Shown: positions 1-24,346, numbered from the stretch's first letter. The stretch: DNA of 64,000 nucleotides from Candidatus Omnitrophota bacterium (GCA_016206785.1 JACQQV010000031.1:35860-99859), one strand, 5' to 3'. A program made the numbers and translations. Notes: generated by a model from the sequence alone, not told the origin.

Positions 1-1212
<1,212 letters not shown>

Positions 1213-1240
1213 TGGTACCTCCGTTAAAAGTTTACTATAA

Positions 1241-4300: not shown

Positions 4301-7300
4301 TCCCATCTCTTTTGCAAAAGCCCCAGACTTAAAACGGCGAAGAAACTCTTCGGGATCAAGCCCCTTCTTTTGAGCCAAATCTACCGTCTCACTCGTTACA
4401 ACCGCCCCAGCACCCCCCCACCGACCATCCTTCCCATCGGTCGCCCCTGCCAAGAAGGTTGCCTTTCCGAGGTTCCTTTTCTCAAGTTGTAAGGAAGAAA
4501 GGAGATTCGCTACCGTTAAAGCAAGGTGACTATTTCTCCCACCCTCTCCTGCTCCAGGTGGTACCTCCACCTCTGGTTCCCCACCCCAAAGGAGCACGAC
4601 AGGCTCTTTTCCAAGATAGGGGGAGAGGGTTGATACCATTCGATCCGCTTCTTTTTCTACAGATTGGGTAAGGGGCTCGTCAATAATCACTGTCTTGAGT
4701 CCAAAGGAACGAGCCACCTCCGCCGCCCTCTCAAGACCGGGTCTATTTCCAAAGAGGAGCGCTGACTGAAAACGTTTTTGGTCGAGGAAGGTGTCACTAG
4801 GTCGAACCACTTTTTGTGTTTGTTCTTTGATGTTTTGTTCAATATCATCGCGTACCGTAAGAGGAACTTTGTCCCACAGTTTACGTTTTACGAGAATATC
4901 CTTCGCGTCTTGAAAAGTGCTTCTATCCCCAACGGTGTACCCGGAAGCGATATCTTCGAGTCGATCATACGGAACGTCAGACCCAAGGAGATTCACAAAA
5001 TATTTTGCATTTCCACCGAGTTTTAGAATCTCGGTCCGCTGATCGACATGCTTACGGATAATATTTTTGTCATGAATATTCATTCCTGAATCTTCAAGGG
5101 TTTGGTAGAGTTCCCGTAAATCCTTCAATGGAATTTCAGGAACGGGGAGAGCACCGATCGCGCTCCCTCCTCCCGAAATAAGGGTGATCACCATATCCTG
5201 AGGGGTCGCTTTGGCGAGGAGTTTCAATATTGCTTCAGTCCCCTCGGCCCCCTCCAAGCCTGGGGTTGGATGTTGACCGGCATACAGTTGAATGACACCG
5301 ATCTTGCCACGATATTTTTCCTTCTGTTCATGCCCATCGACACTCAACACACCCGCCGTGATCCGGTTCCCAAAAATTTTATGAAGCGCCTCGGCCATCC
5401 CGGCAACCACCTTGCCATATCCAACGACGTAAATATGTTTGACCTCGTTCAAATCATATTCACGTCTTTGGATCGTGAGTTTCTTTGAAAGAGCATCATA
5501 CACGACATTTCTTCTCACCGCATCCGAAGCATTGGCGCTTTGGATCGCCTCAAAGAACATCCGGTTTGCCAAAACCTCTTCAACCGGAACTCCAGGAACG
5601 GGATTCTTGGGAAAGGAGCCATCCAGAATTGCACTTAGGTTTTCAAACGCGATCTCCTGCATCCTGCGGCGGACAGGAATCACCGCGCTTCCTGTATGCC
5701 CTGTGATCTTTACATTGGAAAGTTCAAAAAGACCCTGCTTCGAACTTCCATTTGTATTGCTCTCATCAGTGAGCACATCGAAATGGCCCTGAGCCTCCGG
5801 GTGCTTTTTCAAATGAGCGATCATATCTTCTTCGTTTATAACGCCACCTCTTGAAGTATTGAGGTGGATCGCTTTAGGTTTGGTTTTCGCGAGGAATTCT
5901 CGATTCACCCAATGTTTGGTTTCTGAATTCAGATCAAAGAGGTAAGTGAAGATATCGGGTTCTTTAGCAAGGGTATCTTTATCGACCACTTGAATCCCCT
6001 GTCGAGAGGCGCGCGCGATATTATCGGAATTCTTTTCAAAAGTGAGCATCTTCATTCCCAATGCAGCCGCCCGTGAGGCAACCGCCTGACCGATCCGGCC
6101 GAATCCTGCGATCCCGAGCGTCTGTCCGGCAAGAGTCTTTTCAAACAATGCCCCTTCACGGCCCGATTTTACCCAAAGATCTTCAGGGTCAACAATGGTA
6201 TGGTGAACGCCATCAAGAGGAGTTGTTCCTGGAAGACGAATGACGTAATCTGCTTTCTCACGAAGTTCGTGGAGTTTTGGCACGATGGGAAAGTAGGTTA
6301 AACGAAGTTTCGATTCCTCTTCAGGAGTGAGCCGTTGATCCTCAGGGGCGAAGTAGACAATAGAAGCGATGCCGTGGGCGTTCGCAAATTCTGCAAGACG
6401 CTTACCCACCTCATTCATCCCCACAATCCCAAGAGAAGTTTTGACGCCGACCTCCGGATCGGCTCCCAATTGATCATGAAGAATGGTCGCCTCAGGGCCA
6501 ACACCACATCCACAATACTTCCCATCCCTGACAAACTGGTACATGTCACCCAAACGGAGGGACTGACGCAACAGTTCTCCCCAAAGGATCTCCGCCACCG
6601 CTTGCGGATGTTGGGGAATTGCTGCAAGAAGAACCTCTTCCAATTTCTTCTTTCCAATTTTTTCCTGAGAAATGGAATCGGTAAGGAGGTAGTTTGCGTT
6701 GAGCGCCTTCCCGATATTGAGCTCGGCCATCGCAATCGTTAAGGGGCTCCCGGTAGGCGTCTGTGCATTGGTCACAAAGATCCCCCGCTTCCGCGCCTCT
6801 TCGCGGTCCACATTGTTATACCCGATGCTGAATTGAAGAATCCCTTTTAAATGGGGGGAGGCGTCCATAACCTCTTTGTCAAAACTCAAATTGGTAAATC
6901 CGGTGATGTAGTCATAATCTCCCTTCCGGACAATTTCGAGAAATTGCTTTTGATCGAGGCGTTGATAGTAATCTTCTCCGGCTTTGAAAATTTCAGACCC
7001 GGTCCTCAGGACGTCGACATTAACGTCTCCTCTTTGTCTGTAGAGCTGGCGGACATTCTCATCCAAGGGCTCTATGACCAATACATTTGCTTTTGGATTT
7101 TCAACCCTCGTTCTTCGGACCTCGACTCCCGGCACGACCTCAACGATGGATTCCTCGGTAGGCTCCCGTACAACTTCTCTCCCTCCATCGCGAGAAGCTT
7201 CATAGGTCCCCTGTTCAAAGGAATGGCCTCCTGCACTCGGGTAGAAGCGGGCCATCCGGAATCGGTTCGAACCTTCTTCAATCGGATCAAACCGGTGGAT

Positions 7301-10300
7301 CCCCGTCTCTACAAGAGGTTCTGCGTAAATAGCGACTTCAAAGAGGATTTCATCACCGTCATTGATCACTTGATGAACCGGATTGATGACTCGCGTAATT
7401 TTTGAAATACTTCCCTTCCGAATGGATTCTTCCGAGACCTTTTCCAGAGAGACAATGTTTCCTGCTGTTTGTGAAACCATACGAAAACGCCTCTCCTTCC
7501 CACGCCCTTCACCGACGATGCAGAAGACACAAGCATTTCCACCATGATTATGAATAGGATTCCCTTGACCGGGAAGATACGCGATAATGCTTAATTCAAA
7601 ACGCTTTTGGGGATCGAGGTGAATCACAACGCGGGGGTAATCGGTAGGACCTTTGAGGCCTTGGACCTTTCGCTTGGCAATGATATCGAGGATGCCGATC
7701 TCTTTTAAGAAATCTGGGGAGCGCGGAAGGAGTTCGTCGGTTAAAATCCTTGCCAGGGTATCTGCAAGACTCTTCTGTTCTTTATCCGATAACTTCTGAC
7801 CTTTCTTTAAAGAATCTACCTCAGCCGTCACACGATCCACAACCGCCTGCGTCACAGCGCCATATTTTGTCCCCCCATCCGTTCCAGATTCATACTTGGC
7901 CGATTTTTCCGCCGCCTGAGAGGCCTTCCACTCTTCCACCGTCGGAAGTGGGAAGAAGGCATCGAAAAGCGGTTTCACAATTCGCCCATCCTGAATCGCC
8001 TCGAGAATTTTTTCTTTCTCGGGGCCAGGATCTTTATCGGCATCATTGAATCCAACTTGAAGATCCCGACGGATGAATTCATAAAGCGGTCGTGTGTTCC
8101 CAAGGAGGTGGCCTCCCCCTTGTTGCAAAGCTCTTTCTTTAGCCTGAGGGAGTAACAGATCAAGACGCTTCGCAAGAAGTTCCATAAACACCTTATAATA
8201 TCCAGCGACAGCCTTGGCGTCATTGACAAGGTTGACCTCCACAGACCCAACCGCTTTCGGATCGCTCCGAAGAATATCGTCAATTTCGCCCGCCAGCGGA
8301 TCAAAAAGCGGCTTATATCTTTCAGAAGAAGTAAATGCATAATAATAAGGAGGGATCGTTTTCGCTTTCTTGACCAAGTGCGCGGTCATGAGAGGTGCGA
8401 TGTCCTTCCAATTCGTTACGACACTTGGCAGTGTCTCCTCAACGGTTTTTGCAATCGCTTCCTCTGTGGCGTTCTGGTAGATCCGTTCAATATTCCGGAG
8501 GTCAACCGCCTGAGCCGTGGAATAGAGATGATTTACAAGCATGAGTTGAAGAACTCCAACTGCCTTTTGCGTATACCGCGCAGAAATCAGGGCCAGCGAA
8601 TTGACGTCTTGATTCCCCAGCTCTGCATTTTTGACGTGAGTGGTCACTGGATTCGCCAGATACTCCAGCTCCGATTGGTAACTCGCCATTCCGATTTCTG
8701 AACCCTTATCCCCAAAGTCGAGGTTCGGGTCAGATCCTGCGAGATTTTTAAGGAGGCCGTTGTTGTAGGCGTCGCTGTGAAGTTCGGTATATTGGGCAAA
8801 AAGAATCTGGCCGATCGCGGAGAGGGCAAGACGTGTATTCTCCATGGCGACACCGAGGGGTGTTCCCTGGAAATTCCCTCCGTGAAGCACGCGGTCTCCT
8901 TCAACATCAATAATCGGATTGTCGGTCACAGAGTTCATTTCGGTCGTCACCGCTTCGGTTGCCGCCAAAACGACCTCGAGTTGCGGCCCAATGGCTTGGG
9001 GAGCGGTCCGAATTCCGTAACGGTCTTGCCGCATCCTCCCCCTTTCAATCTTTTCTTTCCCGTCCAGCTCATCCCGTGAGAGCCGACTTCCCTTAAGAAG
9101 ATGCAGAAGGTTTTCACCCACTTCAATCTGTCCTAAGTGTGGTTTGATGGCTTGAATGACCGGATCGTAACTTTGATTCGTGCCGATAAGCGTTTCGACG
9201 CTCAAAGCGGTTGTCGCCTGGGCAAGCAGAGCGAGAATGTTGGCATCATACAACACGTGGGTTGCCAAGGCATTGGCGACAGAGGTGCCATTGACAAAAG
9301 CAAGGCCTTCTTTAGGCCCAAGTGCAATCGGTTCAATGCCGGTGATCTGAAGTGCTTCTCTGGCTGAAATTTCTTTTCCTTGATAGCGTGCCTTTGCCGT
9401 CTCTTTCCCCATGAGCACCGCAAGCATGTGAGAGAGCGGTGAAAGGTCGCCGCTCGCCGTGATCGAGCCTTTATTGGGTACAACAGGGGTAACCCCCTTG
9501 TTAAGGAGTGCCACAAGATTTTCCAAAACAAGCCAACGGAGTCCCGAATATCCTTTAATATTGGAATTGGCGCGGATGAGCATGGCACCACGCACCTCAT
9601 CCTCCGGAAGCGTCGGACCAAAGCTCGAATTCAAGAAACGGATCAGTTCTGCCTGCAGTCTTTGCACTTCATTTGTCTGGGCGCCCGCGCTTCCGCCATA
9701 TCCTCTGTTGACGCCATAAATATCCCTTCCTTCGGCAATCGCTTTCGCAAGCCATTCCACAGAAGCATCGACCTTTGCTCGGACCTTTAGAGAATCCGTC
9801 AAAGAAACCGGTACACCATGCTGAGCCACTGCGGCCACATGGGGAATAGTAAGGTCTTCCCCGGTGACCACAACTTTATCGGTACGTTTCAATCCTTCAG
9901 CAAGGGCAAGTACAAGATCCCGATGCTTCGTCTGTTTGACAATATTTCTGAGTCCTTTCGTGTCTCGATAAGTTTTCTCCACGAGTTGCGCTTTTTCTCT
10001 TTCAACTTGTTTTTCTCTTTCCTTCCGGGTATACAATTCTTCAATCTGTTTTGCGAATCGCTTTTCAATCTGTGGACGAATGAGAGAGCCTTTTGGTGAA
10101 AGCGGAAGCGGTTCTTCGCCTGGCGCCATAATCACAATATTTTCCCGACGGACCCTTGAATAATCAAGGAAGTATTGATTAACATCCTCGAAGAGCCCCC
10201 AGATCGCTTCCTCAATGTCCATCCACTGTTTTCCTTTGAAAGCCGCATAGTTCGGTTGGACAATGGCGATATTGTAGGGTCTCAAATGCCCCACCAAGGC

Positions 10301-13300
10301 AGCCTTTTGAATCAAGGGGCTGTCTTCAAGCGCCATTTCAATTGGAAGCGGATTTGTCTTTTCGCCTGTCGGATGTGCAAAAATTTCGTCGTTCCGACCC
10401 ACATAGACATATCCCCCCTCAACCTCTTGGAAAAGATCTCCCGTATGGAAACGTTCAGGTTCTTTAAAGACATCTTTTGTCGCCTCTTCATTTTTAAGAT
10501 AGCCGGCGGTCACGGTTGGACTATTGTCAAGGACGAGCTCTTTCCCTTCAAGACCCGGGGTAGAAACAAAGTCGGCGTTCACCCCAGGGATCACCCGAAG
10601 AGTCCGCCAATCGCGCTTTTTCGGGTCCCCCAAGAAGATCGCGCCTCCCACATCGGTCATCCCCTCGCCTTGGATGACATTTACCCCCTTCCCTTGGAAA
10701 TATTTTCCAGTCGCTTCTGAAAGAACAACGCCACCTGACATGATAAATTTAAGGCCCCCCAATGTATCAAGTATCGTCGGATCTTTCTCTGCCATTGCCT
10801 GGAATCCTTCGAGCATCCACGGAACGGTGTAGAAAACATTCGCCTTGGTTTCTCTTAAGGAGGCGAGGAGTTGATCGGGCGTCGGCGGTCCCGGTTTTAA
10901 CCGTGGGAAGGCATATTTGGCACCGACGTACAGATTGCCCAAAAACTCAAAAGGGAGCCCCATGACATGAAAGAACGGAAGCCAACCGAGGGTCATATCT
11001 TCGTCGGTAAAATCACCCTCCCAGGCGAGCCGCGAGGCCTCCCGGTTATAGAGGAGATTCTGATGGGTCAGCGGAACTCCTTTTGGCAGTTTGGTGGTTC
11101 CTGAGGTATAAAGGATCAGTGCAACGTCCTCCGGTTTTATATCAACAGGCGGGATTTCGACAGGGGCCTCACCCTCTTGCCAAGTCGCTAAAGAAATTTC
11201 ACCCTCCTGAAGTTTTTCAGGAGGAAGTGCATCCAGTACGAAGATTTTTTTGATGTTTAGATTTTTAGATTTAAGGTCACGGGCGGCCTGAAGGAAAGGA
11301 CCTGCGGAGACAATAAGGGAAGTCGCATCAGAATTGGACACCATATGTTCAAGCACGGGAGGTGGCGCACGAAAGCTCATTGAGACAACCGCCCCTCCCA
11401 ATCCCCAAACCCCCATCGCGGTTTCCACAAATTCAGGACGATTCGGTGAAAGGAACGCGATCCGATCTCCCGGCCGGACCCCTTCGGTATAAAGCGCTTT
11501 CTTCAGCCGTGCCACCTCTTTGTCAACTTGATTGAAGGAGACCTCTTGGTATCCCTGCGTCGATGGAACGACGAGAAATCCCCGATCGCCATATCTCTCC
11601 ACCTGCATCGCCCAAAGATCCGGAATCACTCCCGTCTTCAGGGTCAGTTCTCCAAGGCGAAGGTTCCGGTAGGCACCGTCTTTGGCGAACTTACCCGCAT
11701 GTTTCTTGATGATTTCCTGATGGAGCGCCGGTTCAATATTTTTCCCCGAAATCATCAAAACGACGGTCCTGGCGTTTTCAAAAAGATCGCGATGTGCAAG
11801 AAGTGCTGCCACAGAAAGGACCCCCGCTCCTTCCGCCACAATCCCTTTTCCTTGATAGTGCTCCTGGTGAAGGAGTGCGATGGCGCGTTGGATATCCTCT
11901 TCCGAAACTGACACGACACTTCCAACTTTTTCTTGAAAGATCTTAAAGGGGATGACGCCTGGGCGTTTGACCTTCGCGCCGTCCGCAAGGGTCTCCGGGG
12001 AATCAATTTCAACGATCTTTCCGCTTCTCAGAGAACGAAGCATGCTATCTGATCCGGATGCCTGAACCCCGATTGTTTCTGTCCGCGGAGAGAGGGCACG
12101 GGTCACCGTCGCAATTCCGGCCAGATACCCTCCGGTTCCTACAGGCGCAACGATAACGTCGGGAGTCACTCTGTCTTTTTCGAGAATCTCCAGCGCAACA
12201 GTCCCTTGTCCGGCGATGACCCAAGGTTCAACGGGCGAGATGAAAATATTGCCGCGCCGGAGCGCCTCGTTATACCAGGCTTTCCGGAGGACATCGTCAA
12301 ATTTACCAGTGACCGTTTCCAACCGTCCTCCCAGTCTCTCGATCGCCTGACGCTTCGTAGGAACGATATCCTTCGGAACAAAAATCAGATTGTCGACTCC
12401 AAAGCGGTTCGCAGCAAGGACGACCCCTTGGGCATGATTTCCCTGGGAAGGGGCGATCACGGTGATACCCTTCCGATCAGCGAGCGGAACATTTTCAAGG
12501 ACATGAGCCACTTTCGCAAGTGCCCCGCGCCACTTGTATGAACCGATGGAGGACTCGCTGTCCAGCTTCAGGTAGATGCGTCGGTCGGTTCCTTTTCCAA
12601 AGAAATATTCGCTCAGAACCGGCGAATAAATGAGGGGCGCTTCTTCCAAGTAAGGGCCCATGAGACGATAAACTTCCCGAACCCGATCGATATCCACGTA
12701 TCCGTAGCGGGGCTCAAGACGTGTCCACCGATCCTCTGAAACCGCATGGGGGGAATCGGGAAGGGTGGCAACTTCTTTCAAGGTTACGAAGACTTTCGCA
12801 AGCCGCAGATCGATAAAGTAAGGATCGAGGGTTTCAAGATAGGTCAGGTCGATCGTCTTTTCCGGCACCACGCCCCCCTCCTGCGTCAGAAATCTCACGA
12901 TCTGGATTATTTCTTCGTAAAGGGCTTCCTCATATTGGGTCGGGTCTGACACCTGACGGGACTTAAGGTAAGCAAGTTTATCGATCGGCTCCAAGAGTCT
13001 CAAGGAACCGTTGGGGGTATCCTTGCTCCGACTCATTGTGCCGATGATACGGTCCTGAGCCACCTGACCATCCTGCACGATTTGGAAAACGACCTTCCCG
13101 TCTCCTCGCATCTGGATGGTAAAGGTGACAAATTCATAAGGCCTATTCCCCACGTTGGATTCGAGGAGTCCTGCCACTTCCTGAATCGTTTTTCCTCCAC
13201 CGTCGCGGGCCATGGCAGTGCTGACTAAAAACATTCTTCCTCTCCCTGTCACATCCCCCGAAGGACCGATTGAGACTTCATTAGCCCAACTGCTTCTTCC

Positions 13301-16300
13301 TGTAAAAATATTTCCTTTCCGATCGGTAAGAATACGTAGTCTCCCGTTGACAATCTCAACGTCTGTAATCTTCGGGCCTTTCTTTCCAGAAGGAGGTCGT
13401 GCAAATCGAAGAACAACCACTTCATCTTCTGGGGTCACCACCATGGCCAAAGCGGGATCTAATGCAGAGGTCTTTCTGGATAATCCTCTTATCGGAAAAC
13501 GAATGGGATTCTGCCAATAACTATCTTTCACAATCGCGACCCACTCTTCTCCTGCAAAGATCTTTGTCCCCCCTGTGGCAGGCCTCACTCCTTCTTCCCC
13601 TTGGACTCTGCTTTCATAATAAATAAAAGGCCAACTCCATTTTCGATGCTCCATTTCAATAGAAGCACCTCTTTGAGAAAGGGTCCCAGGATCTGTGTCA
13701 AATGTGGAGTGCGTCAATATCAAGGGAAAACTCTCTGGAGAAGAGATGCTGTCTTGAATTTTTTCTTCAAGGAGGTCATGAAGATGACTGTGTGGAAGGA
13801 CCTGCTGCCCAAATGCGTAGGAAGGGACGTCGACACGGAGTCGATCTCTAAATTGTTCAAGATTTAACCCTAGATTAAAGTGGTATCTGACACCCCCTCC
13901 AATATCTTCTGCAAGGAGAATCCCCTCTTGGACCAAAGGTCTAAGTGCTCCTAAGATCTCTCCTTCGCTCCTGATTTGTTGAAAGACCAAGGCCTCGCGC
14001 AGCCCACCATCCTTCGCAAACTGCGGGGGGGCTTTTTCCACTGCCACAGGCTTCCCGGCCTTTGCAAATGCCGTCGTGATCATGGCGACGACACGTTTCA
14101 GATTTCTGGCGATATCCTCTTCGCTGATCGGGACATTGGGATTGTTCAAATCGGCGGCCAGGTAATTTTGCGCAAGCATCCTGTCATGGATGGAAACGAA
14201 ATCGACCTGATCCGCATAGGAAGTTGCAAAAAGGTATTGGTCGGGATTGTCCGCGCGGACGCCAAGTTTGAATCCCTTGTGACTCCGCCTTAAATCGGTC
14301 TCCTCCAAAAGATCATGGGCGATTTTTAAATGAGTCACGTCACGGACATCGGTGAGTTGTATCAAAATGTTGTCAATGCCACCTCTCCGCGCCTCCTTCA
14401 CCGCCTCAAACTCCCAGCGGAGAAGAGTCCGGTATTCATCACTCGCAACATACCGGTAAAATCCTCCGAAACCGAGGGGGGTGTTTTCTTCCTTCTTGTC
14501 AAAAACAGTTCCATACCGAAGGGAAAGATATCCTTCGCTATCCAAATCGCTGGTCTGATACACAAGCTGCTCGCTCTTTTTCGACGAGACCGCTTTGGCA
14601 AAGAACGCAATGAGTTGGGTGCGGTAGTAATCCTCCGCTTTGATGAACCCCTTCTGGCCGATAAGCGTACGAAGGGTGGTCTGAATCTTCCGGATACCTT
14701 CCAAGTCCCTATTCAGTCTTGTGAGGAGTGCCGCCTTTTCATTGGCTATCTGAAGAAGTTCAATCCTTTTTTGCTCCTGCCCATCACCCAACGACTTGAG
14801 ATTGCGTTCGGCAGCAATTCGATCTTCCCTGGTTGTTTCAATTTGATGCAAGATTTCTTGTTCGATCTGATGGAGTTTCCCGCTGTCATAATAAAGGAAA
14901 GCGAGGGGGTGAATTTTCAGGATGTCACGGTAGAAATCGGAAGCCCGTATCGTCTGGATCTCAAGCCGCTCCGCGGCCACTTCTCTTTCGGGGATTTCGA
15001 TGGCGTCAGGCGTGGTCACCTCTCCACGGGTCAAAGGAAGTCTCCCTTCATAAATTTTTCCGGTCTTAAAATCAGCAGTAACAATTTGTCCTTCCTTCAA
15101 GTCTCCTCGGATACCGACGAGGACCGGTTTCCCTTGCGCTTCAGCTTCTCGGAACCAGGGACGGTCAAGGTCTTGGGCCTCAAAGAAAAATGCCCCCGCT
15201 TGATTGACAACACCGTTGGGAACGGCGATCCTTTCGGAACCCTTTCGAAATAGAACAAAATCGCCGAGTTGGATCCGACGGAGATCTTCCGGATCTTTGA
15301 CCACGACCATGTGACGGTCCCCCGCACCCTGTGTGGCAAGCGTTTTCCCAAAAGCGACCTCATGCGCTTCACGAAGGGATGCTTCTGAAATGGAAGAAAG
15401 ATTTAATTCCGCCTCGGAAATCAGTTTGACGGCTGCAAGGAACCCACGGACGTCTGTTCCGGTTGAATCAAGGAGTACGGCAATCTCGCGGGCCGCCTGA
15501 AGGTTATACCCCGGTTCGCTCGGATTGGTGAGTTTGATGATCGCCTGACCGCAGAGACCGCAGGTAAACTTCACGTTGCGCCTCTGGCGTGCTTCACGTA
15601 CCGCATACACCACATGACGGATGCTATTGACGATAGCAGGATGCGATTCTTGGAAAAGGGCTTTCACCAAAGGTTCTTCACGCCCCGCGCGGCGTGTTGT
15701 TTGTGTTAAGTCATTGGTTCCGAACGAGAAAAAAACATCCTTTCCGGTTTCCTTCGCGTATTGTGCCAAAAGATCCGCAAATTCATCCGCCTGAATCACG
15801 TTTGAAGGGAGCTCAACCATCATGCCGACGGTATGAAGCGGCATTTTGACTTCCTGGAAGCGTTTAAGACCTTTCCGGAGTTCTTCCGGCGTCCGGACAA
15901 AGGCGAAGAAGGCCCCAATATTGGTATAACCGGCCTCGTAGACCCGCTTGAGCGCTTCTAATTCCAAACCGAGAACTTCACGGTTCTCTTCCTTTAATAG
16001 CCAACCTGTTCCACGGTCTCCCAACATCGTTGCGCGCTCACGGGAACCGAAGACACCGCCCCCTGTAATCTGGAGAAGCTCGTTCTGTTTGAAATCGTTG
16101 AATCGGTAGAGAACTTTTTGATGAATCCCATTTGCCGCCGCCATAGAGGCGAGACCTTCATAGAATTTTCGGACGTAATATTCACGGGCACTGGGATAAC
16201 CGGCCACACGCCTCTCGATTTGCGCAACCAACTGGGGATGGGCACGGAGTTTTTCAACGTCTCCGCGCTCATCCATAGTCAGGGAGGTGTTGGAATCTTT

Positions 16301-19300
16301 TTCGAGTCCCTTCAGATTGTCGTAGGCGAGGATCGCCCTCGGATGAATTCCGACGCCGACAAGAATAAATTCTGCCCGGGCAAGACTGATCCCGTAAAAA
16401 GAAGGGTAAAGGGCAAGGTTGGAAACTTCCTGCATCGCCCGGGGATTTGCTACAATCAGTCCCGGTTTTGTGAAATGGGTCTCCGGAAGTTGGTCCACAT
16501 CGATCTCAACCTGCTCGGTTTCGATGGGGAGTGCTCCTTTGTAAATCCTCCCCGTATTGGCATCGACCGTGACCCAGTCATCTTCGGTAAAAAGATAGTC
16601 CCTCGCCTCCCTGTAGTGCGAAGGGGCTTCCTGCCGAAGTCTTTCCAAATCTCCATTAATTCCGGTGATCGTCGCCAGATTCAACTCGCGGCTCACAATT
16701 GCGGCATGAGAGGTGTCTCCTCCCTCTTCAGTAATAAAGCCGCGGACCCCCTCGGTTTTCATGAGCGGTTCCTGTCCGGGGGTCGTAAAGTCTGTCACAA
16801 TGATAGTATCCTCCCCAGACTTTCGGAAGTCAGCGACTTTGTTGCGGATACGGTCCTCTTCCCGGGCATAGTCTCCCTTGAAACTCCTCGCCTCGCGATC
16901 CAGAACGATGACCCGTCCGGTAAACGCATTCCGCCCCTGAACGCCTTTGACCAAAAGTTTCCCTGCCCCTTCCGCCTCCTCCGCCACCTCCTCCGGAACA
17001 AAAGTTCTTTTAATGGAAACATTCCGCGCCCCGATGTCGGAAGGGGTGGTAACGGCTCGCGACTGCACAAGACCCACGGCGGAGCGTTCCATCGCCCCTT
17101 CCATATCGCGGATCCCTCCGTAAAAATCGGTAGCCGCTTTGAGTTGTCGGGTAATTTTGATGATCTCTTCGTCGGTTGCAGCGAATTGATTTCTTTTTTC
17201 AGGAGGGACATGGGTCCAAATGAGCCGCTGTTTCGGATCTTCGAGAAGCGCATGGATCGCGTGGGTCAGTTGCAAAAAGTTTTCTCGCGGAAGGACAAGA
17301 TGTTTTGAAACGGCTGCCGGTAGATGAAGTCCCTCTGCAATCGCCTTCTCGGCCCTCTCTTCAATCTCCTCGTGGATGCGCACAATGGTCCGAAGAAGGG
17401 GAGCGATCTGATTCCCGTTATAAATCTTTCCAAGGAGTTCAGGGGAAAGGGCGACCCCCCTCGGCTGGAACTCTTGCGCGATATAACGGCGGACCGCTTC
17501 CATGAGTTGTGCAAGCTCCTCTTGGGTGATTCCCGCCTTCTCAAGAATCTCCTCCAGATACACCATTTGAGTCCGCTTCGCCCCAAGCTCTGCTTCAATG
17601 ATATTGACATGTTCCCGACCCTCTGCATCCGTGAAGAGATGAACTTTGTAGGCGTCTGGAACCACCATTCCCCCCACAATCGCTTCTCCCAACCCGTAAG
17701 AAGTGGTAATCCGGAAAATCCGTCCTTCGGTGAGTCTTTCTTCGGGGGTATCCTGAAAGCTCCTCGCCGTGAAACCGGTGGTCCGATCGAGGCTGAAAGC
17801 CACAAGGGAGACGTCGCTTCGAATCATTCTTTGAATGGGAACTGCAAGAGAAAGGCGCGTTGGATCAATGTAAGGCTTTCCCGCTTCTTCCAAAAGTTTC
17901 AAGAAACGGTCCGCAATCCTTGGGTGCCCGGTCCGGATTTCCACCAGGGCGTTCCGCATCTTTGCATGGGGAACATACGTTCCCTTTTCAAGATTTTCGC
18001 CGATTTCCCGTACCTGTTGCCGCGGCGTCTCCTTCAATGCCGAAACAAGCTGAGAAAGATCCTGCGGGGTTTCAATGGCGCTGATGAATGCAAGGAAGAT
18101 TTGCGTATCCCGGTAGCTGATGGCGTTCGGTCTAAAAAGACTTGCCAAGACATCCCGATATCGCTCGAGGACAAGGGAGTACCCCCTCACATTCAAAAAG
18201 GTCTCCTGTTGCCCGGCACTGGAACCGGAGGAGATCTCCACTTTCAACCCCGAGCGGAGCGGCTTGGAAGGATCAATCTCCACATCTTCGACGGTGCCGG
18301 AGCTTCGTACGGCGACAGGGAGATTCATATCGGGATAACTGTTTTCCCGGCTGAGGACCATATAATTTCCGACAACCTCCTGTTCAAGATCTTCCGGCAT
18401 CACCGCCTGCTCAATCGCCTTTTGAATCGCCTCTGAAGCATCCTTGAGGGCATGAGGGTCGGTGACATCTAAATCGGAAAGGAGCCGACCGATGGTATCC
18501 CTGATTTCAGGATTTGCATCGAGGAAACGCTGGTATCCTGCTGCCGTGACAATGAATCCTGGTGGGACAGGAACCCCATGACCAAACATTTCCCCAAGAT
18601 TCGCACCCTTCCCGCCCACAATCGCCATATCATGACGCCCTACCTCTTCAAACCACACCGTCAGTCTTTGAGAAATATCTTCAGCCCTTTTGCCTTCGCC
18701 ATCTCTGGCCGCGAGACCCCATTGTTCTCCTCGGGGATGGTTTAGAATGCGCACTTGCGATAAAGTCCTCGGCAGCCTTCCGAAAGCCACCTCATTGACA
18801 AGTTGAAATTCGGCCTTCGATTCTCTATGGTCGATTTCAAACTCTATCACCCAAGAGTCTGCATCCGCTCTTCCCATTTCCCGTAATGCGATGCCCCGAT
18901 GATGACCTTCCGCGATGAAGAAACGGGCCCGTTTGGGTTCCGGCTTAATCACAATAAGCGCTTCACCTTCGCCCTGTTTAATTTCTTTTTTACGTACCTC
19001 AATTTCTTCTCGAAAAGCGGTTGGGGCGGCGGGCGCCAACACACCTAACGAGAGTGTACGACGATAAACCTTCATGGGTACCCCATGAATTCTTTCAAAA
19101 TCTCTTGCTAACCGGTATGCCAAATCTTTGGAGTAATCCGCAACGGGAATTCGGTAAACGCTTCCTCCCGGACGGATTCCCAGTATGATGCGGCGGTCGC
19201 CAATATACAAAGAGACCGCATCATCACCCTTAAAGTATGTGGGTTCATGAATAAATAGTGCGGAGAGCGAGGGATCCTTCGCCCGCGCCTTTTGGAGTGC

Positions 19301-19558
19301 ACGGAGGAGACCCCATCGGCTGGCACCTTTCTTCTTCGCGCCCGTGAGAATTGTTGAAACTTTTCTTAGGAGGGGGCCCGAAAGCTCGTTAAAGAGTTGT
19401 TGCTCGCCTCCGTCCTTTGCGCCGATGACGCTGTGGGTGCGAAGATGTGAAGAAGAAGTGAAGATATCCTGCAAGGCATGTGCAGGCAGGGTATTGGTAC
19501 AAAGGAATGCTTGAAGAATGATCCAACTCGAAACTTTAATCCAAGTTTTAGACTTCAT
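1301..19558 (-). CDS. Giant (6085 aa) signal-peptide-bearing multi-enzyme-domain fusion protein
   Basis: A single stop-free frame spans 18,258 nt. The N-terminus [28 protein letters not shown] looks like a signal peptide. I checked the motif positions against the DNA by back-translation: GGDTSHAAI at 16697-16723, SYKWRGA at 12521-12541 and KGSITASGD at 9446-9472. The sub-domains are listed below as separate features. Confidence 0.85.
   Translation of the reverse strand: [6085 protein letters not shown]
1304..2458 (-). other. C-terminal region (~385 aa) of the giant protein with no recognisable family
   Basis: I recognised no known motifs in this region. It is mixed charged and hydrophobic, and it ends ...[11 protein letters not shown]. 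Confidence 0.3.
2459..4171 (-). other. GTP-dependent phosphoenolpyruvate carboxykinase-like domain (aa ~5130-5700), paralogous to pckG at 55807..57579
   Basis: [38 protein letters not shown] aligns with [37 protein letters not shown] in pckG. The P-loop is [13 protein letters not shown], with Ser in place of the pckG Cys. Other matching segments are [32 protein letters not shown] and [19 protein letters not shown]. Confidence 0.8.
4259..5521 (-). other. Glycerate 2-kinase (DUF4147 + MOFRL family) domain (aa ~4680-5100)
   Basis: [54 protein letters not shown] and [10 protein letters not shown] match the conserved motifs of GckA/TtuD-type glycerate kinases. Confidence 0.65.
5609..6991 (-). other. 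D-isomer-specific 2-hydroxyacid dehydrogenase (glycerate dehydrogenase/hydroxypyruvate reductase-like) domain with a ~170-aa insertion (aa ~4190-4650)
   Basis: The catalytic domain is [42 protein letters not shown]. The NAD-binding motif is [33 protein letters not shown] and ITGHTGSA carry the catalytic His. Confidence 0.7.
7289..7636 (-). other. Cysteine-dioxygenase-like cupin domain (aa ~3975-4090)
   Basis: [25 protein letters not shown] parallels the CDO type-I motif IHDHxxSHCFxKxLxGxLxExxF. Confidence 0.45.
8279..9856 (-). other. Aromatic amino-acid ammonia-lyase (HAL/PAL family) domain with an intact MIO-forming Ala-Ser-Gly triad (aa ~3235-3760)
   Basis: [15 protein letters not shown] carries ASG at aa 3368-3370. 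[26 protein letters not shown] and GIRTAPQ are typical of histidine/phenylalanine ammonia-lyases. Confidence 0.75.
10019..11521 (-). other. Adenylate-forming (AMP-binding, acyl-CoA-synthetase-like) domain (aa ~2680-3180)
   Basis: Core motifs are present: [14 protein letters not shown] (A3), [24 protein letters not shown] (A7/A8) and [15 protein letters not shown] (A10 PxGK). No carrier-protein domain follows. Confidence 0.7.
11609..12631 (-). other. PLP-dependent (fold type II) threonine/serine dehydratase-like domain (aa ~2310-2650)
   Basis: SxKxRGA with the PLP-binding Lys in [15 protein letters not shown]. It also has [11 protein letters not shown], the glycine loop [12 protein letters not shown], and [11 protein letters not shown]...[11 protein letters not shown] at the C-terminal side. 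Confidence 0.7.
14009..15361 (-). other. Degenerate second PEP-utilizer half (mobile-domain-like plus TIM-barrel-like) lacking the catalytic His and with TNDLTQ replaced (aa ~1400-1850)
   Basis: [12 protein letters not shown]...GDFVLF...[15 protein letters not shown]...GKPVLVGI...[10 protein letters not shown] parallels the first swivel domain, but GGDTSHAAI is replaced by [30 protein letters not shown] parallels [10 protein letters not shown]. A coiled-coil-like segment at aa 1550-1640 lies between them. Confidence 0.45.
15524..18661 (-). other. Complete pyruvate-phosphate-dikinase/PEP-synthase-like module (aa ~300-1345): ATP-grasp N-domain, phospho-His swivel domain, PEP-binding TIM barrel
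   Basis: [14 protein letters not shown] matches the PPDK_N nucleotide-binding motif. [21 protein letters not shown] matches the PEP-utilizer mobile domain with the catalytic His. [10 protein letters not shown] plus FTCGLCGQ matches the PEP-utilizer TIM-barrel motif with the catalytic Cys region. The domain order is the same as in PPDK/PpsA. Confidence 0.75.
18839..19201 (-). other. ParB/sulfiredoxin-like nuclease-fold motif region (aa ~120-240)
   Basis: [17 protein letters not shown] resembles the ParB-like nuclease domain signature DGHHRlxAxxxxG. The assignment is tentative. Confidence 0.25.
19475..19558 (-). other. Predicted signal peptide of the giant protein (aa 1-28)
   Basis: Positively charged N-terminus (MKSK), then a hydrophobic core WIILQAFLC, then an AHA-like cleavage motif. 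Confidence 0.5.
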
Positions 19559-19592
19559 GTAAATGTTCCCACGTTATAATCCCTTGAAGACC

Positions 19593-22500
19593 TTAGAGAC
19601 CGCGGTTTTCGCGATAGAACTTGTCAAACTCTTCGAGTTCCTGGCTAACCGGCTGAAGAATGACTGTAAATTCTCTTCCTCCGCTTTGAAGAAGTGCTTC
19701 TTTAGCCACTTGATCCATCCCAAAGATTTCAACCATTTCACGGAGGGCCAAGGCCCCATTGGCAACTCCTGATTCACCCTTTGCTGGATTTCCAGCAACG
19801 AGATAAGCGTAGAGGCGAACCCCTGCTCCCCGATAGAGAGCGACAATCTCTTTCGGAGCGATCAACTCACGAAGTGGGGAGCCCTGGAATTCCAATTCCT
19901 CAGCCACAGCTACAGGATCTGTGACATCGACCTGATCTTTGGTTAAAGTCACCTGGAATGCCCCACGAAGATCGACAACGCCATTGGAATCCTTAAAGAC
20001 CCCTGCAACGACCGCGTTTCCAGATCTCCCTGAGGTTGAGATGAGACTAAATCCAATTTTGGAACCTGAACGCTTCAGTTGACCGGCAAGATGCGCAATC
20101 TGTCGAGCGATTGTGAGATTATTAAGCGCCTCTTCGTAGACGGCCACCGTCCCCAGTTCTTGAGACTGGAGAATGGCGGACGACAAAGGTTGTGACAATG
20201 ACGGGAATGTTCTCGTCAAAATATCCCTCACGGACGCGACATCCGTTCTTGTACTTCCATCGGCAACAGCGATTGGTGAAGCCTGAACCTCCGCATAAGC
20301 CGGTGTCGCCATCGGCGTCGAAACAGGTATGCCAGCCGGCACACCCGAAAGAATGTGGAGCCAATTCGTCTCATAGACAGGCTGATTTGGGGAAAACGCT
20401 TCATCAAGACGTACCGCTACTTCATTCGCCCGCTGTCTTTCTTCTGTGGTCATCTGACGTAAGATTTCCCCTACGGCATCCCGCACCGGCAAATCTACTC
20501 CTGAATTTTGAGAGGTAGTAAGAAGAAGTTGTGCAATATCGGAATCGCTACGCGGTTTGACCCCTGCAATAGCCTTCACCGCGTCCACACTTTGAAGCGG
20601 CTTCGCCTCTTTCCGCCCACCGTCCATCACTCCCGCGAGTTTCTTTGCGATATTGAGAGGCGTGTCAATCATATACTCCCTAAAATCAGGGCCGCGGAAG
20701 GCCATCGCCCCCGCTGGCGGTACTCCCATCCCCACAAGCCGCTCGTAGGCGCGAGTGACCCTTTCGATATCGACCCCCTCTTCTTTCATCTTATTGACCA
20801 CTTGGCGAGCTTTTTCATACTTGACTTCCTCCGCGGCAATCATTTCGAGGCGCTCCTGGGCATATTTCGTAAGAGTTGCATCGTCGTCTTCCGAAAGAGG
20901 TTTAAGGATCCCCTTTACAATATCCGCCACGGACCCGCCCTTTTCCACCTTCCGGAAAGTCTCCTTGTACTGACCTTTAAACCGGTCATCGAGTTCTACC
21001 AGGATATTCATCGCAAGTCTTCTGGCGATATCCTGCTGGGGGGTGAGCGTCAGGGAAAAAGTATTCAAGAGTTCATAACTGGTTCCGGCAAAGAGCCCTT
21101 TCTGCACCACGTGTCCTTCGCGCGCCACGTCCACCATTCCCGTTTCCTGAAGATGGGTGTCGATTTCATCCAGAATCTCAAGGACCTTGTCGAATTTCGC
21201 ATAGGCCGAATAGAGTGTGAACAAATGATCAAACACAGTAGCCATGAGGACTCCGGAGAGAGAATCATCCATCATGGGAAGAGGAATAACGATAGTAGCA
21301 CTTTTGCGAATCCGTTGGTCATTGGCAAGAGATTCATCCACAACAGCAATAACATTTCCTTGGGATCCTCCTTTATCCAGAGGTCCGATACGATCGCGAA
21401 TTTCCCCGAGAGCCTGAACCATCTGTTCCGTGTAACTATCTTTTCCAATATAAAGGATAGTGGTCATCCCGGGTTTTAATTCTGCATAAGGGCCATGTTT
21501 CCCGACATTCGCAGGATAGTTTTTGACCCGTTCATGACGGAGCACTTCCTGAAGTTTCAAGCGGCTTTCTGAAGCGACGACCGCGTAGGAACCCAGCCCC
21601 TCAAACCAGATAAAAGGATTGTCTTCTCGACCAAAAGTGGCTTGGACCGCAGTCATTACTTTTTCAAGAAGGTCGGGGTTCACTTTTCCTCTGTCATCAA
21701 TAAAGATTTTGCTCTGGAGGGCATCGACAACGTCATACAGCCTTTTGACGATGACTCTTACCTGATCCTCTGTGACGCGGTTTGTCTTAAGCATGAAGTC
21801 AGTCAACTGAAGGGTCATTGCGATGATTGCGCCTGTCAGCGATCCTGTCGCGGCAACGGAATTTTCAAAGGTGTTGATCGTGTGTACGCTGTGCGGCGTC
21901 TGGTCCTGGGCGCGGGCTAAGTTATCGATCGGGCTTCCCGGTACGTTGGTAAGTACAGAGACCAGGATGCGATCTTTGGGATTCTCAACTTTTACATTGA
22001 TGTCTTGAATCATTTGAAGCGCCTGCTTTGTTTCTTCGGTCGCTCCACTATTGGAGACACCGATCACCAGATGGCGAGGACCCTGGTGATCGGCATTCTT
22101 CAAAAAATCCTCATAAGAAGCGAGTTCCTTGGGAGGAGAGACCTTGAAATCAAAACCGTTTCGGGGGTGAATGGGAACTTCAAGAACTTTGTCGAAGATA
22201 GAAGCAATCGTCTCGGAGAGATGGGCGCTTGTTCCAACACCGACGAGCCAAATATGACGGATGTTCTTGAGGTCCTCGGCGCCGTAGTTCAGCTGATGAA
22301 GGTAAGGCAATCCATTTCGCGTCAGAGAATTTAATGTTCTCCTCCAAGCGACTCTTTGTGCAAAAATTTCCTGTTCAAGATAAGTGTCCCGCCCGCGCTC
22401 GAGACTTTCAAGATCCACCTGCGGTGTTAAAGTAGGAGGGATGATCGGATCGCCTGTGATATAATTTTTAAATTGGACATCGGTCCCTTTCACGGTGACA

Positions 22501-24008
22501 ATTTGTTCCCGGCCGACGTCACGGACACTGACAATTCCTCTTTTCCAATCCCGGAGTTGCTGAGACAGCTCGTGCTCAGGGTCTTCTGGAGGGGCAACGG
22601 GGTACGGTTCCCCCGTGATACCCGAGAAAGCACGGTTTTCGGACGCACCATAGAGTGCACCTTCTTTAGGAAGAGAAATGGTGATGTCTCCTCCCTCCTG
22701 GCCACGGGCCAATACGATATCAAACCCTGCGTTTGAAACGGCGGCAATAGCAAACGTTGAGGCATTCCCACCCCCATAAAATTCCTTTTGCGCCTGGTTG
22801 ACGAGTTTATTTCGGTCGATAGAAGAGGGGAGCTTCTGTGAAACCTCCTCCAAAAGCCTGTCTCGGAAACGGATATACTTTCCATCATAGTGGTCTGGAT
22901 GTCGCAATCCGTCTTTGATCAGATCAAAGTTATGCTGCCGAACTGCATCCAAGGTTTCTGTCTCTTCGAGAACTTTTAAAGTTTCCCGGACCAACTTTTC
23001 AGCAATGCCCCGCACTGCAGCAAAGGTACTATCCTGGGAGATCAGGAGGCCATGGGTATTATGCCAATCTTCATAATCCTGAACGATCCGAAAGGCTCTC
23101 TGCACCGCTTTCGTCAAATCAACGGAACCGTCAGACTCCCTCGTCGCCATAAGTGCTACCAAATTTGCAAAAATTTCAGAGTCGGTCTGCCCTTTGAAAT
23201 CGGAAGCGAGGCGAAAGGGGCTTTGGGTCCCCGGTCTGGTACTATTCAGCATGCGGTCTTTAAAAGCATCCGCCCCTAAGAAATTCCCATTGTGGACAAG
23301 TGCAACTTGAAATCCGATTTCATCATTGCGCGCCAGAAAAGGATGGGCATTTTCATCAGAAATCACACCAACAGTCGCCCAACGGGTATGCCCGATCCCA
23401 ACCTGTTCAAACTTCACAGTCTCAAGATTGCCGCCCTGCTGTGTAATGATAGCCTGATCTTTTCGTGGGTCGATAGAGACATTGGAAGCCGGAACATGGT
23501 AGAGCCGGGCAATGTCACTTTTCAGGCCCTGATGGAGTTCTGTGCGGATTTTTTCCCTGAGGACCTTCGCATTCCCGGCATACTTGGAAACATGAACAAA
23601 ATAGGCCGCTTTCCTGTCCGGGCCGGGGATTTTGGTTACAATTGCCTGACCGTATCCGTCGTAACCGCCACTTAACAGTTTTTCAGTCTGTGTCTGAAGC
23701 ACTCCAATGGTATCCTGCACGCCAGTGACAAAGCAGAGACGGCACTCTACAGGAGATTTCCGTAGATTCAGAATGTCGTACCCCCGCGCCAGTGATCCGA
23801 ACCGTTTTGCGAAGTCTTTCGCGAGCGGCTCCTCAAGAGAAACGCCTCTTAATTCATCGATTAATTGTTTGCGGTTTCCGTCCTGAGAGTTCATGAGGGT
23901 TGGAGTCCGGAGATGAGAAACTGTGTGGGGGCGAGAAGCCCATGCAACAGTAGAAAAGGTATTGGAAAAAAGGAAAAGTTGTACGGTAAGCACTGCGACG
24001 ATTTTCAT
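19593..24008 (-). CDS. Second giant secreted protein (1471 aa): GlmS-like (class-II amidotransferase-like plus two SIS domains) fused to a ~500-aa Ala/Gly/Val-rich unknown C-terminal region
   Basis: The track ORF 19593..24134 reads through the leader. The start is refined to ATGAAAATC at 24006-24008 ([24 protein letters not shown] signal peptide), with a GGAGGTGAG RBS immediately upstream. Its stop lies only 35 nt before the 6085-aa gene start. Confidence 0.75.
   Translation of the reverse strand: [1471 protein letters not shown]
21129..23756 (-). other. GlmS-like region of the 1471-aa protein (GATase-like aa ~85-470; SIS1 ~560-760; SIS2 ~780-950)
   Basis: [21 protein letters not shown] aligns with [21 protein letters not shown] in glmS (39373..41208). 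The SIS motifs are [12 protein letters not shown] and [41 protein letters not shown] aligns with FLGRGVNFPSALEGALKLKEL in glmS. The N-terminal nucleophile Cys position is internal (ECRLCFVTG), so it is probably not an Ntn-type active amidotransferase. Confidence 0.65.
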
Positions 24009-24100
24009 CTCACTCACCTCCAAATTCGGCTGGGGGTCTTTTGGGTCTCCACCTCTCACCTTGGGAAGAAGGAAGCCAAAGCCCCCGTCGCCGAATCGAA

Positions 24101-24137
24101 ATAAAAAACCAGGTTGCCCTGTTCCTTTAGGCAACCC
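24101..24137 (-). terminator. Intrinsic-terminator-like hairpin plus U-tract inside the 5' leader of the giant-gene operon (attenuator candidate)
   Basis: On the minus-strand RNA the structure is GGUUGCC-uaaaggaacag-GGCAACC followed by UGGUUUUUUAUU. On the plus strand the stems are GGTTGCC (24113-24119) and GGCAACC (24131-24137), with the A-tract at 24101-24110. It sits about 95 nt upstream of the start codon at 24008 and about 180 nt downstream of the predicted promoter. Confidence 0.5.
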
Positions 24138-24317
24138 GGCTGTCTATTCTAGATCCAAGGTTTTGCAGTCCCACCCTCACGGATGGTTTGCTCTTATCTA
24201 GTGAACCATTCGGCTAAAAACAAATTCCGTTTCAAAAGAACTAAACTTATTAACCATTTAAAAAGGCTTAAGTTACGAACGAAAAAAAATACATGGACTC
24301 GTTCCCTTTTGTAACAA

Positions 24318-24346
24318 AGTATACCATTCAACCCGTAGGTTGTCAA
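24318..24346 (-). promoter_or_regulatory. Consensus sigma-70-type promoter for the giant-gene operon (TTGACA-17-TATACT)
   Basis: The minus-strand sequence reads cccTTGACAacctacgggttgaatggTATACTttg. The -35 box is the reverse complement of 24341-24346, the -10 box is the reverse complement of 24318-24323, and the spacer is 17 nt. Confidence 0.55.

Follow-up and report, generated by a model that had tools for sequence, protein, structure and literature searches.

A GlmS-derived, predicted exported protein encoded downstream of a cyclic di-GMP riboswitch in a Candidatus Omnitrophota genome

Omnitrophota are widespread, uncultured, and probably host-dependent nanobacteria. The gene described here lies on the minus strand of a 64,000-nucleotide stretch of DNA from a Candidatus Omnitrophica metagenome-assembled genome (MAG; GCA_016206785.1 JACQQV010000031.1:35860-99859), called the window below, and encodes a GlmS-like protein of 1471 amino acids (aa). 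Its coding sequence runs from an ATG at 24008 to a stop codon at 19593-19595. The mechanical open reading frame (ORF), 19593..24134 (-), reaches a TTG at 24134, and the extra 126 nt are leader RNA. A start at this TTG was ruled out, and 24008 is taken as the start, because the stretch between 24134 and 24008 holds a riboswitch terminator and the leader. A first-pass annotation of the window had given the 1471-aa ORF its own ribosome-binding site, which is found as GGAGGTGA 8 nt before the ATG, and the objection that the true start might lie farther downstream and remove the signal peptide is not borne out. A gene-call artefact was likewise ruled out by the intact ORF, the existence of homologues, and a confident fold. 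The features of the gene and of the two other genes used in its interpretation are as follows, with residue numbers counted in the 1471-aa precursor; pLDDT is the predicted local distance difference test score of the AlphaFold2 (AF2) models, Ntn stands for N-terminal nucleophile, and CTD1 and CTD2 are two C-terminal domains (CTDs).

24014..24021 (-): ribosome-binding site GGAGGTGA
19593..24008 (-): coding sequence of the 1471-aa GlmS-like predicted exported protein; NCBI HY590_04745, annotated as hypothetical
23937..24008 (-): Sec-type signal peptide, aa 1-24; predicted cleavage after A-W-A
23745..23936 (-): pro-region, aa 25-88, with the family leader motif SHLRTP..x..DGNRKQLIDELRG; AF2 pLDDT below 50
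23733..23744 (-): C89-R-L-C92, the only two cysteines of the protein; Cys89 aligns with the Ntn cysteine of GlmS
22509..23744 (-): class-II (Ntn) glutamine amidotransferase domain, aa 89 to ~500; GATase_6; AF2 pLDDT 80-95
21147..22391 (-): isomerase half with two SIS subdomains, aa ~540-954; from Pfam SIS and Foldseek
20625..21146 (-): helical region, aa 955-1128; low AF2 confidence; holds R964 and K1122
20610..20624 (-): family linker V-M-D-G-G-R-K (D1129)
20244..20609 (-): small helical module, aa 1134-1255; also precedes the CTD in the relative P0003 (alignment from aa ~1162)
19596..20243 (-): CTD1, aa ~1256-1471; HAD-like Rossmannoid fold, ending ...FYRENRGL-COOH
19559..19592 (-): intergenic gap of 34 nt, no terminator
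1301..19558 (-): 6085-aa operon partner; signal peptide, leader motif, at least 8 enzyme modules, and CTD2
39373..41208 (-): canonical cytoplasmic glmS, used for comparison; NCBIfam 855 bits, cut-off 381

The 1471-aa protein is a relative of GlmS and is not a GlmS equivalog. BLASTP against the window's own glmS gives 31% identity over 108 aa (E=2e-12), covering the GIGHTRWAT...NAHP...HNG...TDSE segment, and 23% over 393 aa in the isomerase half (E=6e-10). Profile searches place both Pfam SIS and GATase_6 over their cut-offs, and the NCBIfam GlmS models PRK00331 (140.8 bits, E=4.8e-41) and TIGR01135 (123.1 bits, E=1.2e-35) also match, with model positions 208-584 covering the isomerase half. 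These scores are about one third of the curated equivalog cut-offs of 381 and 418 bits, which the protein fails, whereas the real glmS of the window reaches 855 bits. The AF2 model spans aa 25-1140 and is confident at aa 89-445 and 544-954; the pro-region and aa 956-1140 were not resolved. The best Foldseek matches to this model are full-length structures, those of human GFAT-1 and E. coli GlmS (E=4e-26, TM-score on the target 0.70-0.76). The protein thus has a class-II amidotransferase and two SIS subdomains in the GlmS arrangement, and the proposal of the first-pass annotation that it is a GlmS paralogue is upheld by BLASTP, Pfam, NCBIfam, and Foldseek together; the pairwise alignment and profile scan that it had called for are those given above. 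The two-domain architecture and fold are shared with GlmS and GFAT (TIGR01135, PRK00331; PDB 2J6H, 6R4E). The 1471-aa protein differs from them in a signal peptide and a 64-aa pro-region ahead of the cysteine, in about 370 aa of insertions, one of which is a confidently modelled helical insertion at aa ~298-411 of the amidotransferase domain, and in about 520 additional C-terminal residues that include a HAD-like domain. Additionally, it is depleted in cysteine and preceded by a cyclic di-GMP (c-di-GMP) riboswitch, and the C-terminal tail of GlmS is not terminal in it and has an uncertain lysine. A scan with Rfam did not find a glmS ribozyme in the window. Relatives were found with an exhaustive phmmer search, since word-index searches gave only the query itself, P0006, and P0007, and looking up the exact sequence of the 1471-aa protein gave no match. 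In the exhaustive search, a GlmS-like core of this type occurs only in the query, P0005, and P0009, at about 30% identity, and in the fragment P0013.

The active-site residues are better conserved than the protein as a whole. In a MAFFT alignment with 28 canonical GlmS sequences, 89 columns are at least 90% conserved, and the query is identical at 50 of the 89 (56%), compared to about 24% identity overall. Around the glutamine site, the GlmS residues R73, W74, T76, H86, N98, G99, and D123 are kept as R209, W210, T212, H222, N240, G241, and D276. In the sugar-phosphate and isomerase site, T302, S303, S347, S349, T352, K485, E488, and H504 are kept as T593, S594, S652, S654, T657, K818, E821, and H838. 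The first-pass annotation had asked whether the sugar-phosphate-binding residues of the SIS domains are conserved, and the five Ser and Thr residues in this list show that they are. P0005 and P0009 retain the same active-site residues despite sharing only about 30% identity. The glutamine-pocket residues, the phosphate-binding Ser and Thr, and the K485/E488/H504 triad are therefore common to GlmS, GFAT, and the 1471-aa protein.

Only two cysteines, C89 and C92, are found among the 1471 residues, and Cys89 aligns with Cys1 of GlmS. Both belong to an [E/D]-C-R-[L/I]-C motif that is present in all three subfamily members, as E-C89-R-L-C92 in the query, DCRLC in P0005, and DCRIC in the L010 protein, and that sits where the amidotransferase domain starts in P0005 and P0009. 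The internal position of the cysteine resembles the propeptide-bearing class-II amidotransferases (MEROPS C44; PurF, glutamate synthase), in which a precursor-internal cysteine needs to become N-terminal; the pro-region here is far longer (64 aa past the signal peptide) and bears the family leader motif. Bacillus subtilis PurF has Glu or Asp immediately before its cysteine, and in the subfamily of the 1471-aa protein Glu or Asp also directly precedes the cysteine. The first-pass annotation had stated that the nucleophile is no longer at position 1 and that glutaminase function is probably lost. The first statement holds for the precursor, although the cysteine itself is not gone. The second does not follow from an internal cysteine because class-II amidotransferases are made with N-terminal residues that are then cleaved to expose it (PMC9140057), and it is argued against by the retention of Cys89 together with the seven glutamine-pocket equivalents, and by the presence of the cysteine motif in three subfamily members that are otherwise stripped of cysteine. 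This pattern suggests that Cys89 is functionally retained.

The N-terminus of the protein, MKIVAVLTVQLFLFSNTFSTVAWA|SR, features a lysine in the n-region, a 12-residue hydrophobic core, and an A-x-A site, and this is the sole hydrophobic segment in the 1471-aa protein. The signal peptides of the two nearest homologues, P0005 and P0009, also end in AWA once their gene starts are corrected, and comparable signal peptides are found in the 6085-aa protein, P0008, P0010, P0011, and the L009 and L010 proteins. The signal peptide claimed in the first-pass annotation is thus retained on the basis of its n/h/c layout, its A-x-A site, and the AWA of the homologues, and we infer that the protein is exported via Sec. 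A lipoprotein was ruled out, as the signal peptide contains no cysteine. The family leader motif, in the form SHLR[AT]P..x..[KR]DGG..L..EL.G, is located after the signal peptide and recurs in relatives, and the first 55 aa of the 1471-aa protein resemble the N-terminus of the 6085-aa protein (E=7e-6). Cysteine content was counted for the window proteins, P0002-P0012, and the L002, L004, and L006 proteins. The family contains 0.00-0.29% cysteine, compared to 1.07% for the 25 other genes of the window and 1.26% for ordinary GlmS, a depletion of about 8-fold. The cysteines that remain in the family outside the signal peptides are mostly in CxxC, CxC, or CC pairs; in the 6085-aa protein, examples of such pairs are at aa 1333/1336, 4010/4013, and 4349/4351. 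Exclusion of cysteine is a documented trait of exported proteins (PMC2823432). The database starts of P0005 and P0009 are too far downstream, and the actual ORFs open with signal peptides. Upstream of their loci (L009 122-5644 and L010 1-5440) are genes for ROK-family sugar kinases, for a GH94 phosphorylase, and for a protein of ~595 aa without a Pfam match.

The C-terminal region of about 500 aa (aa ~955-1471), which the first-pass annotation had described as unknown, is real; it is not wholly unknown, as it ends in a domain shared by the family. CTD1 is about 215 aa long and is modelled with a pLDDT of 94.5. The exhaustive search found it at the extreme C-terminus of about 10 other predicted exported proteins with 40-58% identity. 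These carriers vary widely in length and content and all end in ...FYRxNRG[VL]. Their cargo is triosephosphate isomerase and enoyl-CoA hydratase in P0010, glutamine synthetase in P0011, 3-hydroxyacyl-CoA dehydrogenase and enoyl-CoA hydratase in P0012, HEAT repeats in P0004, and another GlmS derivative in P0008, while P0003 and P0007 carry little beyond the leader and CTD1. Pfam gives no match on the CTD-only proteins. By fold, CTD1 is HAD-like, having a Rossmannoid HAD core, and the acidic motif IV of the HAD superfamily is replaced in it by ..LVAG-N-P. Unlike HAD phosphatases and dehalogenases, CTD1 is always found at the extreme C-terminus of exported proteins. An additional locus, L001, encodes a CTD protein, then a CTD protein with triosephosphate isomerase and crotonase, and then another crotonase protein (1316-4372, 4452-6356).

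The family also features a linker, A-[RKQ]-D-G-G-x-[KR], that was observed 48 times in 23.6 kaa (thousand amino acids) of family sequence against 8.2 expected, an enrichment of about 6-fold; in the 25 other genes of the window it occurs once against 3 expected. In the 1471-aa protein the linker at D1129 precedes the small helical module, which ends in a weaker DG-type motif, A-D-G-S (D1250). Three relatives, P0008 and the proteins of 2569 aa and 2241 aa at loci L004 and L006 (L004_2569 and L006_2241), contain a Peptidase_C39 domain (PF03412) with 22.0-26.6 bits against a cut-off of 22, which is their sole Pfam match in that region. The domain lies at aa ~120-310, ~135-327, and ~125-318, respectively, and has a C-x-x-C-G active-site motif. 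In all three it is found directly before a conserved G-C|C-G-I junction that opens the GlmS-type amidotransferase domain. C39 peptidases cleave after Gly-Gly, and the D-G-G linkers are therefore candidate processing sites and such cleavage a candidate route for freeing the Ntn cysteine, so that cleavage at the A-[RKQ]-D-G-G-x-[KR] motifs is put forward as a hypothesis. A C39 domain was not found in either window protein by hmmsearch with the domains of the relatives.

The leader RNA upstream of the gene contains the following features.

24318..24346 (-): sigma-70-type promoter, TTGACA-17-TATACT with a TG extension; 11/12 hexamer matches
24127..24202 (-): c-di-GMP-I riboswitch aptamer, Rfam RF01051
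24099..24141 (-): intrinsic terminator with a 13-bp stem and a U tract; -26.1 kcal/mol, z = -4.8
24027..24093 (-): leader hairpin between the terminator and the ribosome-binding site; the CUUCCUUCUUCCC tract pairs with GGUGAGAGGUGGAG

The aptamer scores 52.5 bits with RF01051 (gathering score 35, E=2.2e-7) and 50.6 bits with the variant model RF03167, which is under the gathering score of 59 for that model. The aptamer alignment reveals that the 5' arm of the terminator is the 3' strand of the aptamer stems P2/P1. Since the two share a strand, the terminator is therefore interpreted as the expression platform of a switch that is ON with ligand, in which c-di-GMP would block termination. The promoter core TCCCTTGACAA is kept in L002 and L006, and the terminator is retained in L002, L004, and L006. 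Like known c-di-GMP-I (GEMM-I, RF01051) riboswitches, the element has an above-threshold aptamer that shares a strand with a terminator platform, and as is common for this class, it is located 5' of genes for exported or surface proteins. It differs from the known examples in its occurrence in Omnitrophota, in its predicted control of exported derivatives of central-metabolism enzymes, and in the presence of truncated aptamer relics with the terminator kept in sister loci. The leader hairpin, of about 65 nt, is near-identical in four loci: the window, L002 (~5118-5185), L004 (~2020-2090), and L006 (~1665-1745). Its sequence is CGGCGAnGGGGGCTTTGGCTTCCTTCTTCCCAAGGyrAGAGGyGGAG...CCCCCAnGCCGA, in which a pyrimidine tract is paired with a Shine-Dalgarno-like purine tract, and it has no family match in Rfam.

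Species-representative genomes were scanned with the C-terminal domain, which led to the locus L002 in another uncultured Omnitrophota MAG. There the order is promoter, c-di-GMP-I aptamer, terminator, leader hairpin, P0008, a 2059-aa protein, and an isocitrate/isopropylmalate dehydrogenase (Iso_dh) gene. The L002 aptamer scores 49.5 bits with RF01051, is in the same place as that of the window, and differs from it by a compensatory C-G to U-A change in one stem. P0008 (L002 5207-10594) is a leader-bearing, GlmS-derived protein of 1795 aa with the same CTD, and its gene overlaps by 1 nt with that of the 2059-aa protein. This multi-enzyme protein shares 40% identity with aa 3948-5118 of the 6085-aa protein, and the Iso_dh gene is the counterpart of a gene at 133..1266 in the window. 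The operon has thus been conserved together with its riboswitch, although the proteins of the two genomes share only about 40-50% identity. Ahead of the riboswitch operon, L002 (62-4728) encodes a cysteine-free 1230-aa protein that contains FBPase_3 and the short CTD protein P0007.

The second gene of the operon encodes a 6085-aa protein on the same strand. The gap between the genes was measured as 34 nt and not as the 35 nt given earlier, and a search for a terminator-like site in it (19559-19592) found none. The tandem arrangement is confirmed in this way, and the two genes are probably co-transcribed. The Pfam domains of the partner include PPDK, PALP, AMP-binding, aromatic-lyase (Lyase_aromatic, E=1.8e-145), 2-hydroxyacid dehydrogenase, glycerate-kinase-type DUF4147/MOFRL, and PEPCK. 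It is a chain of housekeeping-enzyme domains, which agrees with the description of the pair as exported, diverged copies of housekeeping enzymes in tandem, and the canonical glmS is indeed still present in the window. A-[KR]-D-G-G-x-[KR] motifs are found at aa 49, 1850, 2119, 2627, 3894, 4124, 5113, and 5783 of the partner, and the linkers lie at the borders of Pfam enzyme domains; one lies between MOFRL and PEPCK_N, and another follows PEPCK_GTP. CTD1 is absent from the end of the 6085-aa protein. Its last ~300 aa (aa ~5774-6085; 1301-2230 (-)) form CTD2, which is distinct from the HAD-like CTD1 and shares 34-37% identity with the C-termini of the 2569-aa (L004 2053-9762) and 2241-aa (L006 1760-8485) proteins.

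Taken together, these features are best explained by a GlmS-type enzyme that is still functional, is induced by c-di-GMP, is exported by Sec in a pro-form, carries a family docking domain, and is made with the 6085-aa partner, an interpretation in which belief and doubt are evenly balanced. The promoter would produce the leader RNA, and bound c-di-GMP would block the terminator and allow read-through into both genes. The 1471-aa protein would be exported by Sec via its cleavable signal peptide, and removal of the 64-residue pro-region would expose Cys89 as the N-terminal nucleophile. With intact glutamine and sugar-phosphate/isomerase sites, the module most likely retains the ability to form hexosamine phosphate, or at least acts as a glutaminase and a hexose-phosphate isomerase. 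The core would be followed by the A-x-D-G-G-x-K linker, the small helical module, and the HAD-like CTD for docking, sorting, or assembly. The protein and its partner would act outside the cytoplasm, whether in the periplasm, on the bacterial surface, or against or within a host cell, and the predicted timing is the attached, high-c-di-GMP phase of a host-dependent lifestyle. A bolder version is unlikely. It proposes a c-di-GMP-triggered exported metabolic toolkit, in which leader-tagged polyproteins of housekeeping enzymes are cut at A-R-D-G-G by C39-type double-glycine peptidases, freeing or activating enzymes that include an active extracytoplasmic glucosamine-6-phosphate (GlcN-6-P) synthase. 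The HAD-like CTD would dock these enzymes on a surface or a delivery structure, and they would act on or in the host and divert central metabolites to the parasite.

Several observations weigh against the pro-enzyme interpretation. Some concern the enzyme itself. The GlmS positions R26, Q348, E351, and K403 are substituted by G, N, A, and G, respectively. By sequence the nucleophile could be C89 or C92, and C89-x-x-C92 could instead be a redox or metal motif. A processing protease or C39 domain was not found in the window. The GlmS tail ...NLAKSVTVE with Lys603 does not form the end of the protein, as the chain runs about 500 aa further, and there is ambiguity regarding its equivalent, which is either '..DVAREGHVV' (R964, via '..LAETITVE' of P0013) or 'PLNIAKK' (K1122). 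K1122 rests on a weak BLAST/MAFFT match in a region of low AF2 confidence; it was not confirmed as the displaced C-terminal tail, and the tail of P0013 points to R964. P0008 can be aligned with the 1471-aa protein in the leader and CTD only (47%) and its core is undetectable in this comparison; the core has therefore diverged far more rapidly than the CTD, which would be expected were catalysis not the main constraint. Others concern regulation and location. The riboswitch is intact in only two of the examined loci, the window and L002, and none was found at L008, L009, and L010. In L004 (1900-1995) and L006 (1400-1480) the aptamer is degenerate; its first hairpin (GCAAACC...GGGAC) is gone and only its 3' half remains, together with the terminator, so that these elements are either riboswitch relics or a variant. 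The idea that every family member is controlled by c-di-GMP was ruled out on this basis. The signal peptide was assessed by rules and conservation and not with a dedicated predictor. In biochemical terms the weak point is the site of action: the substrates, fructose-6-phosphate and glutamine, belong to the cytoplasm, and in open water the ATP- and NAD-dependent domains of the partner would be without cofactors. In CTD1 the HAD motif I nucleophile, DxD, is not present, as strand 1 ends in ..VAVY-E-E-A-L (Y-E-E), and its most likely role as a common docking, sorting, or assembly module is a guess.

Three other explanations were weighed. The module could be a dead glutaminase with its cysteine buried in the chain, in which only SIS function is kept in an exported sugar-phosphate-binding, lectin-like, or adhesive module. 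The position of the cysteine at residue 89 of the precursor, the lack of clear conservation of R26, K403, and the C-tail lysine, the large insertions, the scores far under the GlmS equivalog cut-offs, and the very divergent core of the syntenic P0008 all speak for this. However, a dead domain would not keep the pocket and the cysteine, and the conservation of both in three homologues with about 30% identity, in proteins purged of cysteine, therefore counts against it. An internal cysteine followed by cleavage is normal in this enzyme class (PMC9140057), and the isomerase triad K485/E488/H504 is kept in addition to the phosphate-binding residues; overall, this explanation has a low probability. 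Loss of catalysis is taken further in the proposal that the proteins are structural pseudo-enzymes, bricks of an extracellular coat or adhesin in which the enzyme folds merely serve as stable scaffolds and what counts is the leader, the linkers, and the CTD alone. This fits the better conservation of the CTD and leader than of the cores (47% versus undetectable between the query and P0008), the heterogeneous enzyme content among family members, and the short P0003 and P0007, which have little beyond leader and CTD; additionally, a coat role has been proposed for a giant protein of Velamenicoccus (PMC10066038). It is quite improbable in view of catalytic-residue conservation in the subfamily that is well over background (56% versus 24%) and of the very strong Pfam scores in the partner, such as that of Lyase_aromatic (E=1.8e-145), which argue for retained chemistry.

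A further explanation, which is very doubtful, retains catalysis and dispenses with export. The hydrophobic N-terminus would hold an additional GlmS at the membrane, tethered on its cytoplasmic side, and the riboswitch would boost the supply of amino sugars for exopolysaccharide or cell wall at high c-di-GMP. Under this explanation c-di-GMP, matrix polysaccharide, and the need for GlcN-6-P fit together, as do two intact active sites and substrates found in the cytoplasm. A single lysine is present in the n-region, with Arg26 and Arg34 past the hydrophobic core, and the P0005 and P0009 loci adjoin ROK kinases and a GH94 phosphorylase. Nevertheless, the A-W-A site is kept in homologues, and the strongly basic n-regions of the family have the typical N-in topology of signal peptides. 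The depletion of cysteine by about 8-fold is unlike the cytoplasmic enzymes of the same genome, a canonical glmS is present, and the Ntn cysteine would still require freeing. A topology survey of similar Omnitrophota proteins also puts the multi-enzyme content of those with signal peptides outside (10.64898/2026.06.07.730766).

Giant Omnitrophota proteins, many with signal peptides and including multi-enzyme metabolic clusters with PPDK and sugar-phosphate isomerases, have been reported (10.64898/2026.06.07.730766; 10.1101/2023.11.21.568195), and peptides of the Velamenicoccus giant ORF are enriched in attached cells (PMC10066038). The operon resembles the Omnitrophota multi-enzyme giants or Archaeovorins (Nielsen & Lui 2026; West-Roberts et al. 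2023; Seymour et al. 2023) in its phylum, in encoding exported or membrane-associated proteins tiled with housekeeping enzyme domains, and in the link to a host-dependent lifestyle; Omnitrophota origin, a signal peptide, and polypeptides tiled with such domains were all found here. It differs in size, as 1471 aa and 6085 aa fall short of the catalogue threshold of at least 10,000 aa in the 2026 preprint, and in lacking HEAT or dockerin repeats and any transmembrane helix other than the signal peptide. The texts searched on Omnitrophota giant proteins make no mention of the leader motif, the A-R-D-G-G linkers, or the HAD-like CTD, nor of riboswitches, c-di-GMP, a GlmS-like module, or cysteine content, and a literature search for c-di-GMP riboswitches and Omnitrophica found no paper. 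The protein class is thus already known. New, as far as checked, are its regulatory element, the handles that define the family, and the interpretation as a pro-enzyme. Exported Omnitrophota multi-enzyme proteins have been catalogued, and this locus provides a small, tractable entry point to them. A protein of 1471 aa is of expressible size and its parent enzyme has a well-known mechanism, which makes activity, propeptide removal, and localisation testable. The predicted induction by c-di-GMP would tie exported multi-enzyme proteins to the surface-attached state. The leader motif, the A-R-D-G-G linker, the HAD-like CTD, and the exclusion of cysteine are search handles that span varied enzyme cargos. 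Should the modules prove active outside the cytoplasm, a bacterium would be exporting central-metabolism enzymes on purpose, which would bear on how episymbionts feed on hosts.

Two further gene groups were noted elsewhere in the window. A contiguous pyrimidine biosynthesis cluster at 25776-38540 (-) consists of a phosphoribosyltransferase, OMP decarboxylase, dihydroorotate dehydrogenase with an Fe-S/NAD subunit, carB, carA, dihydroorotase, aspartate carbamoyltransferase, and a PyrR/UPRT-like gene; within it are two ORFs without a Pfam match, at 32168-33406 and 34925-35704. In the region 41403-53585 the minus strand carries gyrA, gyrB, dnaN, and dnaA, the plus strand carries yidC and mnmG, and the GC skew switches sign near 52 kb. 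This gene set and the switch in GC skew indicate that the window spans a likely replication origin, about 30-50 kb away from the operon.

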